DNA from: an uncultured Gemmatimonadaceae bacterium
Lineage (GTDB): Bacteria; Gemmatimonadota; Gemmatimonadetes; Gemmatimonadales; Gemmatimonadaceae
Direction: 5' to 3'
Assembly: GCA_963790305.1 (NCBI GenBank)
Contig: CAWBOC010000012.1
Span: 1-38,460, forward strand
Length of the DNA: 38,460 nucleotides
Shown here: one piece after another, positions 30,001 through 38,460 of the stretch
Numbering within the stretch: position 1 is the stretch's first letter
Layout of the letters: each line of letters starts with the position of its first letter
Position numbers: made by a program

Positions 30001-33000
30001 CTGCCACCGCATCACAATAGAGCCGGCCCAGCCCGAAGGGCTCATGGCTTTCCAGCCCTTCTGGAACCTCGGTCGGTCCGGGAGGCTCCCCCGTGGCGAC
30101 GCGGCGCGCCGACGCGGCCAACGCCTCCTCGAGATGAAAGCGGGCGTTCTCATACTCGTGGGCCGCCTGCGAGACCTGCTCCTGCATCTCGCACACCGAC
30201 ATCTCCCGGTCGCTCTTGTAGGCGTCCTCTTCGGTTCGCTGGAGCGTGTCGGCGACCCCCCTCACGCGGATGAGGTCGATGTTGAAGAAAAGGCGCTGCA
30301 GCTTCCCCGGCTCCTCCTTGGGGATCTCCTGGGAGTACCCATCGTAGAGCGTCAGCTCCAGGTCGCTCATGTTCTTGCTCATTCCCATGCGACCGCTGTC
30401 GGCGTGAATCGTGCGCCTGCGAAGCGGGTCGCTGAGGTCGATGATCATGACATCGCGCATCAGATCGTCGGCCCCATCGATCTTCATCGTGCGCAGAAAC
30501 AGCTTTCCGGGAGAGACTTCGTTGATGACCTGCTCGCGCAGCGCGAACGTCGGCTTCTTGCGCGCGATGTCCGTCTGCAGCTTTCGCAGCCGGTGATTCG
30601 TTCGAGGGAGCACCTGGTCGTTGAAGGCGACCATGAGCAGCGCGAAGAAGGCGCCGGCGAAGATCACCGGGAGGAGAACGCGCGTCATCCCCACGCCGCT
30701 GGCCCGCAACGCGGTGATCTCGTTTTCGGCGGCGAGGCGGCTAAACGCGTACAGCGTCGCGATGAGCACCGCCATCGGGGTGGTCATCGCAATGATGAAC
30801 GGGATGGACAGCGCGAAGAACTCGCCAATGACGGCGCCGCCGAGACCCTTGCCCACGAGGTCGCCGAAATGGCGCGCGACCTGATTGAGGAGGAAGAGCG
30901 ACGTCAGCGTGGCGAGCGCGAAAAAGAACGGTCCCGCGTGCTCGCGCAGGACGTAGTGACGGAGGATCTTCACGCCGGGTATCTCAAGCGAGACTGTGTG
31001 TCACGCGTACAAAGCTCCTGCAAGCTAAAGGAGGAACAAGGAATGAGGAGTGAGGGAATCAATTTCCCCACTGCTCATTCCTCTTTCCTCATCCCGTTGG
31101 GATATTATCGTGGTGGGACACGTCAATTTACGTTCCCGGCGCCCCGCGGGCGAACGGGAGCGCGCGTGGCTCCCCGCTGCCGGTGATCGGGTGCGCCTTC
31201 TCCGTCTCTTATTCCCCGCGGCCCTCTCGATCGTTCCCGCACTCGGCGCACAAGAGCCGGCGCAGCCGCCGGCGGCCGACACCGCGGCACGTCCGGGAAT
31301 GGGGGTCCGGCTTCGGTTTCCCAACGATTCGCTCGTTCTCGAGCGCCCGGCGGCGCTGGGGCCGTTCGGGCGGCTCGCGCCGGCGCGCGACAGCGGCGCG
31401 ACGATAGCTGATCGTCAGGCGTCGGCGCTGGTACAGATGACCGAGGTGGCCCGCGCCGCTCGCTGGGGGGAGGCGGTAGTCTCCCTATTCGCCGACTCGG
31501 CCGGCAGAAGGCCCGCAGAGCTCCCGGATTCCGCATTCCGCCCTGCCCAAGGGGCACCCACGAATTCGGCCGGCGACACCACGCGCCGAGCCGGAATCTT
31601 CGGCGAATATGCCGACCTCGGCCTTCATCTCACCTCGCGCATCGAGACCAAGATCGAGCGCGATCGCAACGAGCGCTGCCGCTCGAGTGATCTGCTCACG
31701 CCGTTCGCCAACTGCGTCGGTACGCTCCAGCCGCAGATGGACTTTCAGTTCAACGTCCAGACCGGCGGCGTCGTCGCCGATCGCATCCACGTCAACGTCG
31801 ACTACGACTCGGAGCGCGAGTTCGACGCCTCGAACAACATCTCGGTCTACTACCAGGGCAAGCCTGACGAGCTGCTCCACCGGCTCGAAGTCGGGAACGT
31901 CTCGTTCGCTGCGCCGCCGTCGCGCTTCATCACCGCCGGCATTCCCAGCGGCAACTACGGTCTCCAGGCCGTCGGCCAGATCGGGCCAATGCAGTTCCGC
32001 TCCATCATGGCGCAGCAGAAGGGAAACATCGTCCGCGACAAGGTCTTCACGATGGGCGATCGCTCGGTGCAGACGATCGAGCGCGACATCGAGGACTTCC
32101 TGGTCGAGCGTGGTCGCTTCTTCTGGGTGCTCGATCCCCGGCGAGCGTTCGCCGGCCGCTTTCCCAACGTCGACATCCTGGGCCGCGATCTCGATGCGCT
32201 CGCGGCGGCGATTCCGCTCGGGGAACGGCCGCGCCGCGTGCTGGTGTACCGCTACCGGCCCCCCACGGCAGGCGGCTCGGTCTCCCGCGACATCAACGGG
32301 CCCTATGCCGTCACTCGTTATGCGAGGAATGCCAACGAGATCGGACCGTTCGACGTGCTCCAGGAAGGCATCGACTACTACATCGACCCGACGAATCTCT
32401 GGATCGCGTTGGTGAATCCGGTGCAGCGTGGAGAACGGCTGGCCGTGTCCTACACCGTCGGCGGCCCAACCGGCGATGAGATCATTCTGGGAAGTGTCGG
32501 AGGCACCTTCCCGACGTCGCGAGGGCCCGCCGGCCGCGACACGATCAATCTGCTCTGGGATGCCGAAGTGCTGCCGGGCGATATCGTCTTCGACCAGGAG
32601 ATTCGCTCGGTGTACCGGCTGGGCGGGGAGGACCTGCGTCGCGAGACGGTCCAGCTCAAGATCGTCGTGGGTGCCGGAGGCGATCAGGAACGCCCCGTGG
32701 GAACGCCGTTCGAGACGTTCCTGCAGATGTTCGGCATGTCGCAGCCGGTCAACCCCTCGGCCTTCGACATCGAGAACAGGCTCTGGCCGAGACCGAGCGA
32801 TCCGAATCTGGCGCGCAACGCGGCGCAGGGTGGGGCGAAGCTCATTCGCGACTACTTCGTCGTTTTCCCGTCGCTGCGTCCTTTCGCCGATTCGGGCCTC
32901 GCCGATCCGCCCAATCCGCTGAACGATTCGCTGTACCGCACCCCGTTCGAGGATCTCTTCACGCAGCGACGGCCGCCCACGCAATACCGCTTGCGCGCTC

Positions 33001-36000: not shown

Positions 36001-38460
36001 CTGCGCGAGAGCGCCGCGCTGCGGGGAGTGCGGGACGCGGAGCTGCGCTTCGCGCCGTCGACGATCCGCCTGACGAGCGGGTGGGCGCGCGCGGAAGACC
36101 GCAGGTCGTCGTTCTCGCTGCCCGTCTTCCTGGACACCGACACGGGGCGGACCGTGGCGTCGCTGCGCCACGACTGGCGCAATCGCGGGCTCCTCGAGCT
36201 GCGACCCGTCCAGGCGCTCATGGCACGCCTCGACGTCAACTCGGTGCGCGACCTCAGAAACTACGGAGAGGACAGCGATATCGGCATCGTCGCCGGCTTC
36301 GAGCGTGGCGAGCTGTTTGGTCTCGACGTCGGCCTCGAGCGAGAGCGACAGATGCAGAGCGCGCTCGCCTTCTCGCCGGCGCTGACTACGTGGCTGCGGC
36401 CGACGCTCGAGATCGGGAGCACGTTCACGATGTTCCGCGATCCCAACACGAGCACCCTCGTACGCGCCGCGGGAGACAGTGGCGAGCTGCGGCTGCCGCG
36501 CCGGCTCTCCAACTCGCAGATCATCTCTGCCGGTGCGTCGGTCGACCTCGGCGGTGCCATCGGCCGTTATGCGGGCGACTCGGGTGTCGCGCGCCGCATT
36601 GCGAACGCCATCCAGCCCGTTCGCCTGACATGGACGCGCGAGATGCGCTCGCTCTTCGATGCAACACCTTTCACACCTCAATTCTCCTACCAGCTAGGAC
36701 TTGGCGGCATCGACGACTTTCGTTCACTCGACGGGGTGCTCGCGACTACCGCCGGCGTCGCGCGCGGCCTCACCCTCGACCACACCGTGTCACTGCCGTT
36801 CGGGGCCAGCGTGACGCAGCACTACCAGCGCACCGTGAACACCACCTGGACGCGTCGCGCTCAGGACGCTCAATCGATGCTCGAGGCGCGCTCGGTGACC
36901 TTTCCCGACGTCGCGCTGCGATGGAGCTTCCGGCCGGCTCTGCTCTCGGGCCTCGTATCATCGGTGAGCGCGGAGGCGCGTGCGGCGATCACGCGCGCGA
37001 GCAGCTTTCAGCCAGCGCTGCCGAGCGGGGGTATCACTCTGTCGGGGGTCCGTACGGAGTTGGAGACGCGACAATACCCGTTGCGTGGCACGCTGGTGTG
37101 GGATCTCTTTGGCGGGTTTACGACCTCGGCCGGGTGGCTGCGAACGACGCGTCGCGAGCTCCGCAGCGGCGGCACGAGCGAAGGGGAGCAAAACGACGTG
37201 ACGGGCGACATCAGCAAGCTCTTCCGCCTCCCCGAAGCGTGGGGTTTGCCGTCGAACGTCCTGCGCGCCTACGTCGGGCTCCAGCGCATCAGTACCGAGA
37301 CGATCTTCCTTGCCGACACCGCCGCCAAGCGCATTGCCGACAACGGCCGCTGGGCGCTCAACGCGCGCGCCGAGACCGACGTGGCGGAAAACGCGTCGTT
37401 CTCCCTGTCGGCGTCGCGCACGGTGACGTACGATGAAGTGAACGACCGGCGGTTCACGCAGTTTGTGCTCTCGGCGGTCCTACAGCTCGAATTCTTCGCG
37501 GGGGAACTGAAGTGAGAATGCGGAATGCGGAACTCGGAGTGCGGACAACAGCCGCGCGAATCGGTACATCGCGGAGGCCGTTCCTTCGTATTCCGCATTC
37601 TGGATTCCGCATTCTCCTCTCGCCCTCCCGTTCTCAGGCTGCGATACCCCCGAATCCTTCGCCGCCAAGACCGCGTTCAACGGTGCGCGGGCCATGGAGT
37701 ACGTTCGCACGCAGCTCGACTTCGGACCCCGAGTGCCGGGGACTGAGGGCCACCGCCGGACCGGGGATTGGATCGTGGCGCAGATGCGAACGCGCGCCGA
37801 TACCGTCATTGAGCAGCGCTTCTCTCACGTGAACGCCAACGGCGATACGCTGCCGATGCGGAATATTCTCGCGCGCATCAAGCCGGCCGAGACGCAGCGA
37901 GTGCTCTACGTCGCACATTGGGACACGCGTCCCATTTCGGACCGGGCGTCGAATCCCGCTGATCGTGTGCAGCCGGTGCCGGGCGCGAACGACGGCGCAT
38001 CGGGCGTGGCCCTGCTCATGGCGGTCGCGGACATTCTGAAGAGCACGCCTCCCAATTGGGGCGTCGACCTGCTGTTCGTCGATGGAGAGGACTACGGCGA
38101 CTTCACCGCGGGCCGTGACGTGTTGATCGGCTCCAAATACTTCGCCCAGCACCTGCCCGCGCCCGATTATCGCCCGCTGTTCGGCGTGGTGTGGGACATG
38201 ATCGGTGACGCCAACCTCGGTATTTATCAGGAAGGGCACTCGGTACGCCGCGCGCCGGAGATCGTGTCACGGGTCTGGCAGACCGCGGCGGACCTCGGCT
38301 ACTCCAGCTATTTCGTGTCTCGCCTCGGCGAATCGATCACCGACGATCACCTTCCGCTCCTCAATGCCGGGTTGCGAGTCATTAATGTGATCGACATCGA
38401 GTTTGCCGCGCATTACACGCCGTTCGACACCATTGACAAGGTAAGCGAGCGGAGCCTCCA

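Follow-up and report, generated by a model that had tools for sequence, protein, structure and literature searches.

A frameshift-split sprA/sov gene with PorV-family partners but no detectable PorLM motor or PorKN ring in a Gemmatimonadaceae genome

An uncultured Gemmatimonadaceae bacterium encodes one SprA/Sov orthologue, located at positions 31050-37515 of the window (the whole stretch of DNA analysed, 38,460 nucleotides of contig CAWBOC010000012.1) and matching TIGR04189 with 474.5 and 129.3 bits. Judged by its sequence, this is a true sprA/sov gene, and we give a probability of about 0.6 to the reading that its product would serve a reduced type-9-like module as its outer-membrane translocon. 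The PorL/PorM motor and the PorK/PorN ring are undetectable at the level of profile searches, both in this genome and in the phylum.

The sprA gene and its neighbourhood

The gene is carried by two plus-strand ORFs, 31050-35249 (1399 aa) and 34975-37515 (846 aa), which cover TIGR04189 profile positions 128-1317 (474.5 bits, cut-off 200) and 1315-1809 (129.3 bits), respectively, and give about 2100-2200 aa when joined. Pfam SprA_N scored 28 bits on the C-terminal ORF. A TIGR04189 profile search of the 13 contigs revealed no second SprA locus. The features of the region are as follows.

26446-27328, minus strand: mlaD-like gene, frameshift-split (MlaD in the orthologue; two abutting tblastn HSPs)
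27325-28191, minus strand: mlaE (Pfam MlaE, 5.7e-69)
28188-29333, minus strand: second lptF/lptG-family permease (Pfam LptF_LptG, 2.3e-66; synteny)
29273-30973, minus strand: lptF/lptG-family LPS export permease, divergent from sprA (Pfam LptF_LptG, 3.4e-81)
31050-35033, plus strand: sprA/sov, N-terminal three fifths (ORF running out of frame until a stop at 35249; TIGR04189, 474.5 bits)
35025-35033, plus strand: single-base frameshift splitting sprA (frame change between ...LQFYIR and GRDPDNFYLYR...)
35029-37515, plus strand: sprA/sov, C-terminal two fifths (ORF listed from 34975; TIGR04189, 129.3 bits)
37664-38458, plus strand: glutaminyl cyclase-like gene of the M28 fold, truncated by the contig end (Pfam Peptidase_M28, 2e-26)

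The true start of sprA likely lies downstream of 31050, with the signal peptide ending at ...SIVPALGA / QEP. Compared to intact orthologues by tblastn, the N-terminal piece is 47% identical over 1216 aa and the C-terminal piece 41% identical over 836 aa (orthologue residues 1233-2056). SprA of Flavobacterium johnsoniae (PDB 6H3I, 6H3J, 8GL6, 8GL8 and others) and Sov of Porphyromonas gingivalis belong to the same TIGR04189 family; a profile made from 20 SprA orthologues of the phylum matched 6H3I with an E-value of 7e-103, aligning some 1400 positions (profile 343-1711 to chain residues 415-1895 out of 2403). By phmmer, the N-terminal piece matched 6H3I (E 1.5e-22) over residues 641-852 only, and the C-terminal piece had no match among PDB chains.

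With two intact orthologues as tblastn queries, two HSPs in different frames abut at query residue 1233/1234, corresponding to window positions 35029-35033. The frames join exactly at LQFYIR / GRDPDNFYLYR, which points to a shift by a single base in which no sequence was lost. Together with the TIGR04189 matches, this confirms the translocon of about 2100 aa, split by a frameshift, that an earlier note on this DNA had described. The shift lies near 35,027, where there is no long homopolymer. It is most likely an assembly error, since the same kind of split affects at least three more genes: an Oar-like barrel at 21790-25039, the mlaD-like gene (HSPs 27328-26855 and 26853-26446) and pilB on contig C11, which is broken into three pieces.

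The position of lptF/lptG next to sprA is kept in 20 of 20 related loci. At one of the phylum's loci (L064), the cyclase gene and the sprA stop share a 4-nt overlap, and the cyclase orthologue (L064:13077-13979) matches, from end to end of the chains, two solved structures whose deposited name is glutamine cyclotransferase (6QRO, E 2.8e-64; 6QQL, E 4.5e-60). Across the phylum genomes, the cyclase neighbour showed no co-occurrence with SprA. As compared with Bacteroidota SprA/Sov, the conserved neighbours lptFG, glutaminyl cyclase, comEA-like and pilBTC are known here from loci of the phylum only.

PorV-family barrels, tagged proteins and PorX

SprA was found in 97 of 121 Gemmatimonadota genomes (above the cut-off in 96, mostly as single open frames of about 1900-2600 aa) and was missing from 24. 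PorV-family barrels occur in 94 of the 97 genomes with SprA compared to 2 of the 24 without, type-A C-terminal sorting domains (CTDs, TIGR04183) in 56 compared to 1, and a DUF5683-like gene, X, in 60 compared to 1, X being missing from 37 of the genomes with SprA. The pairing of SprA with the PorV family was thus borne out by 116 concordant genomes out of 121. Because related genomes are non-independent, all of these co-occurrence counts overstate significance.

Profile searches gave three PorV-family places in this genome.

C6:143005-143838: 130.5 bits
C9:535895-536467: 104.3 bits
C13:119400-119969 and 120070-120291: 78.1 and 29.9 bits, below the cut-off, with an OmpA domain after it

The presence of PorV/PorQ-family genes claimed earlier therefore stands, but not their number, given as two; the third place is below the cut-off. 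None of the barrels passed the equivalog cut-offs of PorV and PorQ, set at 250 and 220 bits, the scores being 65 and 94; the family cut-off is also passed in Bacteroides thetaiotaomicron, a T9SS-less control. The gene era is followed, after a 184-bp gap, by a porV-like gene (133 bits) and X (30% identity, E 3.5e-29). The order in family f10 is era-porU-porV-X, and the porU-porV-X operon is conserved in 8 of 8 loci of the sister families; porU is missing from the locus studied here. On gene content, the present system looks reduced relative to that of f10. Complex prediction for the PorV-like protein and X gave an ipSAE of 0.40 (runs 0.40, 0.51 and 0.38; best control 0.00). The mark was attained in 116 of 157 solved complexes and in 2 of 215 mismatches; only 18 of those 157 complexes, but both mismatches, attained it with values of at most 0.60. 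The runs share at least 60% of contacts with a partner pLDDT of 70-71, weakly suggesting that the two proteins may form a complex.

A profile made from 10 CTDs of the same phylum detected two proteins in this genome, at C6:50788-51318 (65.8 bits, E 9.8e-18) and C9:177321-177908 (49.4 bits, E 1.3e-12), scores at odds with the description of these domains as weak. Both proteins, about 140-145 aa long, are no more than a signal peptide joined by a short linker to a type-A CTD. The tails of an S8 subtilase and an M14 peptidase are two more candidates, bringing the genome to 2-4 CTD proteins. The subtilase, encoded immediately upstream of a PorQ-like barrel, ends in ...NGVYVLV...RRKVFIVR-stop, a candidate degenerate CTD. 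The cargo signal, which the earlier note took to be unrecognised, is an ordinary type-A CTD: genomes of the sister families f10-f12 have 13 to at least 43 matches each, with canonical tails of the form ...SGVYFYRL...KMVLLK-stop, and this genome has two clear ones. The class to which it belongs has 0-2 CTD proteins per genome, apart from one genome with 6. No TIGR04183 match at E<=0.001 was found in 41 of the 97 genomes with SprA, so many keep SprA without recognisable cargo.

PMC7712824 describes small proteins that are wholly or mostly CTD: P. gingivalis PorA, of 246 aa, and F. johnsoniae Fjoh_0547, of 112 aa. The two CTD-only proteins found here resemble them in architecture and have no PorA-type N-terminal domain. 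The same paper states that sprA mutants and porV mutants still release Fjoh_0547 from the cell, implying that CTD-only proteins need not be SprA cargo.

The PorX gene reported earlier is present at C9:668194-669732 (533.8 bits, cut-off 300). It lies 6 nt upstream of genes for an MsbA-like flippase (TIGR02203, 520.8 bits), a glycosyltransferase and a lipid A acyltransferase. PorX is found in 113 of 121 phylum genomes, 17 of them among the 24 that lack SprA; this distribution and its place within a lipid A operon argue against counting PorX as a member of the SprA set.

Searches for the motor, ring and sortase

Six-frame profile searches of this genome gave no match for GldL at E<=10 and none for GldK, and best E-values of 0.784 for GldM (9.4 bits), 0.492 for GldN (10.8 bits) and 0.553 for PorU. 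Additional HMMs were built from five Bacteroidota gldKLMN loci and run with relaxed filters on all six-frame ORFs of at least 90 aa; the best E-values were 0.061 for GldL (coiled-coil part only), 1.5 for GldM and 8.2 for GldK, with none for GldN. Across the phylum, GldL (TIGR03513) was above the cut-off in 0 of 121 genomes, GldM (TIGR03517, the full-length TIGRFAM model only) reached E<=0.01 in 0 of 121, GldK (TIGR03525) was above the cut-off in 0 of 75, and GldN (PF19841) and GldL_N (PF22827) were found in 0 of 75, the best GldL_N score being 15.7 bits compared to 94-106 bits in the controls. The Bacteroidota controls gave GldL, GldL_N, GldM and GldN in 5/5 and GldK in 4/5 plus one split gene. 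The reported lack of GldK, GldL, GldM and GldN was thereby reproduced with the same figures and extended to 75-121 genomes with positive controls. These absences rest on profiles trained on Bacteroidota and, for this genome, on an assembly 94.33% complete; models of this sort can fail, as the one for PorU overlooked 2 of 5 Bacteroidota controls.

All 19 genomes of f10-f12 have SprA, and PorU is full-length in 15 of the 16 searched and split over two contigs in one more; profile searches failed to find GldKLMN there too despite PorU and the many CTDs. porU was not found in the class of the present genome, so that its cargo would probably lack covalent LPS attachment. Newly added here are the distinction between PorU/CTD-rich and reduced lineages within the phylum, the co-occurrence counts and the era-(porU)-porV-X locus.

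An ordinary, complete T9SS whose PorLM-type motor and PorKN-type ring are too diverged for profiles appears unlikely. PorU, several PorV-family barrels and the CTD load of f10-f12 would befit a fully working T9SS, the PorU model is fallible, and GldK's C-terminal half has 17-37 FGE-sulfatase-domain matches in f10 genomes. However, four separate proteins would need to evade full-length TIGRFAM models as well as Pfam GldL_N and GldN, with GldL_N scores far from those of the controls, while SprA, PorU, PorX and CTDs are readily detected in the same genomes. The best GldK-like f10 genes adjoin a CTD cargo protein and serA, with no L/M/N-like genes; no motor-like gene occurs in the porU operon or between sprA and porX in f10; and a crude scan of this genome for a two-helix protein followed by a bitopic protein returned nothing convincing.

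It is quite improbable that SprA is kept in this class for another envelope task, such as LPS or outer-membrane lipid traffic, instead of CTD secretion. Its divergence from lptF/lptG and mlaE/mlaD (20/20 related loci and the window), the lipid A genes behind PorX, the scarcity of CTD proteins in a class without porU and the 41 genomes without a CTD match would all fit such a role. Synteny is by itself no proof of function, though, the tight co-occurrence of SprA with PorV-family barrels and the almost complete lack of CTDs in genomes without SprA fit secretion, and 24 genomes, two of them single-contig, live without SprA, which is therefore not a core envelope-biogenesis gene. Less probable still is a real frameshift that would make this sprA a pseudogene, the relic of a system under loss. 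The lack of SprA in 24/121 phylum genomes and 9/28 of its own family points to ongoing loss, and the shift lies outside any long homopolymer; yet both halves retain 41-47% identity to intact orthologues, have no more stops or gaps and join exactly, many unrelated genes of the assembly are split in the same manner, and the porV-like, X and CTD partner genes are all intact.

A proposed reduced type-9-like module

The favoured reading is the reduced module, in which Sec would bring CTD-tagged proteins into the periplasm, SprA would carry them through the outer membrane and PorV/PorQ-family barrels would receive or retain them. Its other parts would be encoded elsewhere in the genome: the PorV-family barrel and its DUF5683-like partner at the era-porV-X locus, the PorQ-like barrel beside the S8 subtilase, and the two signal-peptide and CTD proteins. 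PorV-family barrels and CTD-tagged proteins are shared with SprA/Sov systems, which differ from this genome and phylum in having PorL/M/K/N and from its class in having PorU.

The complete Bacteroidota T9SS, as outlined in PMC9127263 and PMC8754138, comprises a PorK/L/M/N core, Sov, PorV, PorU, PorZ, PorQ and PorX/Y. This organism shares with it the translocon, PorV/PorQ-family barrels, the type-A CTD and a PorX orthologue, and the sister families share PorU as well; the trans-envelope motor and ring, described there as the energising core, are missing here, and PorX does not track SprA. SprA-borne secretion in Bacteroidota requires PorLM, according to PMC9127263. We infer that SprA still secretes in this organism, and without a GldLM-type motor; its energy may come from a different inner-membrane energiser, or passage may need no dedicated motor. 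Of the motor-less SprA-PorV system proposed in the earlier note, the absence of PorLM/PorKN and the SprA-PorV pairing held, whereas the unknown cargo signal and the inclusion of PorX did not. The real anomaly is the missing motor, not the cargo signal. We found no published description of SprA and PorV without the motor. The genome has the giant pore, its carrier barrels and a handful of tagged proteins for export, yet none of the known motor and ring genes, which makes the power source of the pore a directly testable question.

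The sprA gene and its surroundings

Type 9 secretion is described as the work of a machine driven by the proton motive force, with the PorLM/GldLM motor and the PorKN ring at its core. In the present Gemmatimonadaceae genome (G000; 4.31 Mb in 13 contigs, 94.33% complete), the gene for the SprA translocon lies on a contig (C12) that the window covers entirely, as two overlapping open reading frames (ORFs) in different frames that both match TIGR04189, an equivalog model of 2319 positions, the last ~500 of which are without a match in this SprA.

31050-35249, + strand: sprA ORF 1, TIGR04189 (Sov/SprA) 474.5 bits, profile positions 128-1317 (cut-off 200)
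34975-37515, + strand: sprA ORF 2, TIGR04189 129.3 bits, profile positions 1315-1809 (cut-off 200)
37664-38458, 3′ of sprA: glutaminyl-cyclase homologue; the contig ends inside the gene

When two intact orthologues were compared with G000 by tblastn, their HSPs met at query residue 1233/1234 (window 35029-35033), where the peptide passes from ...LQFYIR in one frame to GRDPDNFYLYR... in the other. Since the HSPs abut and the frame changes, we read the two ORFs as one sprA gene of ~2150 codons with a single-base shift. The frame is unbroken in 96 relatives, and the family is expected to consist of one polypeptide of ~2000-2400 aa. Other genes of the same assembly are broken likewise, namely an Oar-like barrel (21790-25039), an mlaD-like gene (26446-27328), several more, and pilB on contig C11, which lies in three pieces; for this reason an assembly error seems the likelier origin of the sprA frameshift. 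The identification of SprA made in the earlier note held, as TIGR04189 was matched over its cut-off and a profile of 20 full-length SprA orthologues of the phylum matched the solved F. johnsoniae SprA (6H3I_A; E 7e-103, 348.5 bits), with profile positions 343-1711 corresponding to residues 415-1895 of the chain. By itself, the N-terminal piece matched 6H3I with an E of 1.5e-22, and the C-terminal piece was without a match to solved structures.

In 20 of 20 related loci, drawn from six or more families, one or two genes of the lptF/lptG family are transcribed divergently from sprA; in one family (f1) mlaE/mlaD follow them. On the 3′ side of sprA lie the glutaminyl-cyclase homologue (13/20 loci), a comEA-like gene, pilB and/or pilT, and pilC. 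The cyclase is closely homologous to solved chains that carry the PDB label glutamine cyclotransferase (6QRO, E 2.8e-64, and 6QQL); it overlaps the sprA stop codon by 4 nt at one locus (L064), lies away from sprA in genus g9 and family f7, and is found on other contigs in family f10. Contig C11 of G000 begins with pilB, pilT and pilC, and C12 joins its start; the comEA-like gene, not found in G000 with the query used, could fall between the two contigs. The conserved order sprA - cyclase - comEA-like - pilB - pilT - pilC suggested that a type IV pilus or competence machine might use SprA as its passage through the outer membrane, an idea that we rejected because G000 has secretins of its own (PF00263 in four places, 141-149 bits); these also weaken the pilus link as such. 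Two of the secretin matches are identical (148.2 bits, 662-aa frame) and lie near contig ends in opposite orientation (C3:186336-186845 and C11:42842-43351); these ends probably overlap, so that C11 would join C3.

The gene for PorX, an orthologue of the REC + PglZ response regulator, lies on another contig.

C9:668188-669750 (within locus L337, C9:662001-680000): porX, NF052313 533.8 bits (cut-off 300), profile positions 2-513

Six nucleotides 3′ of porX lies a gene for an MsbA-like ABC transporter (TIGR02203, 520.8 bits, below the cut-off of 602), followed by a glycosyltransferase and a lipid A acyltransferase gene. The apparent LPS and lipid links of sprA and porX are intriguing; synteny alone assigns no function.

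Elsewhere in the window, 19323-26288 encodes two proteins that look secreted (lamin-tail domain, SdrD_B, DUF5689, OB-fold), the Oar-like barrel, which is TonB-dependent and broken by a frameshift into 21790-23976 and 23666-25039, and, on the opposite strand, an Endonuclease I, and may be a locus for the uptake or degradation of extracellular DNA. The minus-strand run 29-8259 comprises an aldehyde-oxidase hammerhead fragment and genes for a ketoacyl synthase, a methyltransferase, a flavin reductase, an FAD monooxygenase/halogenase-like protein and a B12-binding radical SAM protein, and may be a small biosynthetic cluster.

2586-3806, + strand: IS3-type transposase, inserted within the 29-8259 run

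Searches for the motor and the ring

The earlier note had reported GldK, GldL, GldM and GldN as missing from G000, and we recovered the same values: no match for GldL (TIGR03513, E<=10) or GldK (TIGR03525), and best E values of only 0.784 for GldM (TIGR03517) and 0.492 for GldN. For PorP/SprF (PF11751), the earlier note gave no match in G000. Our own gldK/L/M/N HMMs, built from five Bacteroidota genomes and run with relaxed filters over all six-frame G000 ORFs of at least 90 aa, gave best E values of 0.061 for GldL, 1.5 for GldM and 8.2 for GldK, and nothing for GldN; the GldL match was confined to the cytoplasmic coiled-coil part and did not cover the membrane hairpin. When G000 was scanned crudely for a membrane protein of 2-4 helices followed by a bitopic protein, 33 pairs emerged, none of them GldL/GldM-like, a test that the frameshifts of the assembly weaken.

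The phylum sample comprised 121 genomes, including the unpublished G057 and G097, which shift any count by at most one. TIGR03513 (GldL) exceeded its cut-off in 0/121 genomes, with sub-threshold matches of 16.8-20.9 bits to profile positions 71-246 in seven, and TIGR03517 (GldM) was matched in 0/121 at E<=0.01. GldL_N (PF22827) was found in 0/75 genomes with SprA (best 15.7 bits), GldK (TIGR03525) exceeded its 350-bit cut-off in 0/75 (best 111.7 bits, restricted to the FGE-sulfatase half), and GldN (PF19841) was found in 0/75. The same searches on five named Bacteroidota genomes (Flagellimonas, Sphingobacterium, Chryseobacterium, Saccharicrinis and Marinifilum) found GldL (both models), GldM and GldN in 5/5 and GldK in 4/5, plus one gene in pieces; as a caveat on sensitivity, the PorU model failed on two of these five controls.

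Two candidate locations for a motor were rejected, both in f10, a family of a class other than that of G000. The GldK-like genes of f10 do not head a hidden gldKLMN operon: at four loci, the gene encodes an FGE-sulfatase protein and is followed by a ~1000-aa protein with a type-A C-terminal sorting domain (CTD), DUF6868 and serA. The interval between sprA and porX at one f10 locus (L316) contains no motor-like gene, only regulators, mlaEFD, lon, a GTPase gene, sugar and esterase genes, and a heptosyltransferase gene.

PorV-family barrels, cargo tails and the era-(porU)-porV-X locus

SprA was present in 97 of the 121 genomes (96 over the cut-off) and was not found in 24, two of which are single-contig. 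PorV-family barrels (PorV_fam) occurred in 94/97 genomes with SprA and 2/24 without it, the two being concordant in 116/121 genomes. CTDs matching TIGR04183 occurred in 56/97 versus 1/24, and X, the DUF5683-like gene 3′ of the porV-like gene, in 60/97 versus 1/24. These counts are descriptions and not tests, related genomes being non-independent; they clearly show SprA accompanied by PorV-family barrels, CTD tails and X, and not by PorX (96/97 versus 17/24) or glutaminyl cyclase. The cyclase, present in 86/97 genomes with SprA and 19/24 without it, does not track SprA and was dropped as an SprA-linked gene. PorX, which the earlier note had placed in the SprA set, has to be removed from it as well, being kept in 17 of the 24 genomes lacking SprA. 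When relatives from the SprA alignment were searched for an outgroup, the 80 loci considered out of 583 relatives were Gemmatimonadota by title, save for a few named 'bacterium' and one labelled otherwise, and no outgroup was obtained.

The phylum divides in two. In f10-f12, sister families of other classes than that of G000, SprA was found in 19/19 genomes, along with 3-16 PorV-family matches and 13 to at least 43 CTD matches per genome; the tails are textbook type-A CTDs at the extreme end of 400-1900-aa frames. PorU, full-length in 15/16 searched genomes and divided over two contigs in one more, precedes a PorV-family barrel (118-134 bits) and X in 8/8 loci, and the era GTPase gene lies 5′ of porU in all three f10 loci (observations on the operon and CTDs come from loci L305-L314 and L342-L355). 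GldK, L, M and N were still not found in these families. Their genomes also contain recurrent ~200-210-aa ORFs with a CTD end. In f11 and f12 the porU-porV-X operon goes on to encode a protein with NHL repeats, one of 1069-1139 aa in which a stretch faintly resembles SprA (E 1.6e-4), and one that is BamA-like.

In families f1-f9, to which G000 belongs, none of the 59 searched genomes matched the body of PorU (best E in G000 only 0.553), four matched the PorU model solely at its CTD-tail end, and CTD matches numbered 0-2 per genome, with six in one genome.

C6:141889-142770: era, then a 184 bp gap, a PorV-family barrel gene (133.4 bits) and X

The X protein of G000 (279 aa) shares 30% identity with those of f10-f12 (E 3.5e-29), and as judged from sequence the era-porV-X genes of G000 are the f10 era-porU-porV-X locus minus porU. 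As Bacteroidota also carry PorU, a loss of porU in the class of G000 would be the simpler reading of this unrooted comparison.

G000 has two barrels over the PorV_fam cut-off of 90 bits, the era-linked one (133.4 bits) and a PorQ-like one on contig C9 (117 bits); their equivalog scores were 65.2 for PorV (cut-off 250) and 94.3 for PorQ (C9 barrel; cut-off 220), and PorV_fam is also over its cut-off in B. thetaiotaomicron, which lacks a type 9 secretion system (T9SS). A third PorV-family match (C13:119295-120837; L020:8295-9837) spans two frames and continues into an OmpA peptidoglycan-binding domain; it could be two genes or one barrel-OmpA fusion broken by a frameshift. Its neighbours are bamD, secA and genes for exopolysaccharide and nucleotide sugars.

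The cargo signal, proposed in the earlier note to be an unrecognised one, turned out to be the known type-A CTD, and no different shared tail was found: when the C-terminal 110 aa of all proteins of at least 200 aa were compared all-versus-all by BLAST, no obvious new sorting domain was revealed, the clusters being judged by their sizes to be ordinary paralogue families. TIGR04183 gave 24.6 bits in G000 (cut-off 23), and an HMM built from ten CTDs of f10-f12 identified two small proteins by matches at the ORF end.

C6:50788-51318 (gene C6:50911-51321): CTD protein 1, 65.8 bits, E 9.8e-18
C9:177321-177908 (gene C9:177483-177911): CTD protein 2, 49.4 bits, E 1.3e-12

In both, a short linker joins the signal peptide to a type-A CTD, and there is no passenger domain. 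One of the two genes lies 3′ of selB and the other 3′ of smc; a place in a cargo operon was rejected for the gene of CTD protein 2, whose neighbours encode SMC and an MBL-fold protein. Immediately 5′ of the PorQ-like barrel gene on C9, an 832-aa S8 subtilase is encoded whose last 60 residues, a match to this HMM that is not significant by itself (E 0.64), resemble a worn CTD (QNP..., ...NGVYVLV..., ...RRKVFIVR-stop). Once these three sequences had been added to the HMM, the tail of an M14 carboxypeptidase matched at E 0.006 (20 bits under TIGR04183). As predicted from sequence, G000 thus encodes two clear and two possible CTD proteins. In SprA, X and both CTD-only proteins a Q stands at the predicted signal-peptide cleavage site or no more than three residues away; by a crude home-made heuristic from which nothing is concluded, Q was at +1 in 55/653 predicted secreted proteins (8.4% versus a 2.9% background).

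X of G000 has no Pfam or NCBIfam match. DUF5683 was weakly matched by 7/9 aligned relatives at E<=1 (best 8.9e-5), and X resembled a DUF5683 cluster in a protein atlas with a feature score of 0.93. The protein has a signal-peptide-like start and two long conserved hydrophobic helices with a helical domain between them; its AF2 model (pLDDT 67) is all-helical, with long helices at 78-117 and 210-258, and the invariant polar residues are E85 in helix 1 and N240, H241 and D247 in helix 2. A profile of X found nothing meaningful in the PDB (best E 0.014, an antibody chain), and the model had no Foldseek match there at E<=0.001, ExbB appearing only at E ~1 (TM ~0.2). The predicted complex of the PorV-like barrel with X reached an ipSAE of 0.40, against 0.00 for the best control, with partner pLDDT values of 70-71 and runs agreeing in at least 60% of contacts. 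The ipSAE mark was reached by 116/157 solved complexes and 2/215 mismatches; values at the mark of 0.60 or less were given by 18/157 solved complexes and by both mismatches. The modelling thus lends the complex weak support, and X is a candidate new component of the system.

A probable type 9 translocon without its motor

Taken together, we favour, with a probability of roughly 0.6, the reading that G000 has a real SprA translocon acting with PorV/PorQ-family barrels on a few CTD proteins, and that the phylum lacks the Bacteroidota motor and ring. That a motor and ring are present and too diverged to recognise appears unlikely; it would fit the failures of the PorU model and the PorU, PorV-family barrels and many CTD matches of f10-f12, and would require four different proteins to escape two kinds of model. 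A re-use of SprA for another envelope task in the class of G000 could draw on the lipid-gene neighbourhood, the missing PorU and the scarcity of CTDs, and we regard it as quite improbable beside the tight co-occurrence of SprA with PorV-family barrels and the near absence of CTDs from genomes lacking SprA. Least credible is that sprA is a true pseudogene in this strain, which takes the frameshift as genuine in an assembly where other genes are similarly split.

The favoured reading of a translocon without motor and ring can be extended to CTD-directed type 9 secretion throughout the phylum without PorLM/PorKN, with another energiser or none and with X as an undescribed component, for which we would give somewhat less than even odds. 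Some classes would then possess SprA, PorV-family barrels, PorU and dozens of CTD cargo proteins, and the class of G000 a cut-down set. Compared with the T9SS of Bacteroidota, the phylum shares the pore, barrels of the PorV family, many canonical cargo tails and, in some classes, the sortase, whereas all four motor and ring genes were not detected.

In the relevant statements of two reviews, the T9SS is built around the PorLM motor and the PorKN ring (PMC9127263, PMC8754138). A further paper says of T9SSs, without detail at that point, that they 'may also be present' in Gemmatimonadetes (PMC11285876), and another names Chlorobi, Fibrobacteres and Ignavibacteriae as groups that may have one (PMC5837995). 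TXSScan assigned the T9SS to Bacteroidetes only, with Gemmatimonadetes absent from its distribution figure owing to too few genomes (PMC4793230). Our literature search found no publication on T9SS gene content in Gemmatimonadota; what this analysis adds is how often the parts co-occur, the division of the phylum in two and the era-(porU)-porV-X locus. For annotation, a SprA, PorV or PorX match outside Bacteroidota does not amount to a complete T9SS, and PorX is not usable as a T9SS marker in Gemmatimonadota.

If the extended reading is true, the pore can be uncoupled from a motor so far taken to be obligatory and would be energised by a different machine still without a name, or by none, and X, almost confined to SprA-bearing genomes, is part of the variant. 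The gradient within the phylum from rich to reduced to absent lets phylogenetic profiling seek the missing parts, and Gemmatimonadota would offer a natural experiment in which the translocon acts alone, and a route to an alternative energiser.
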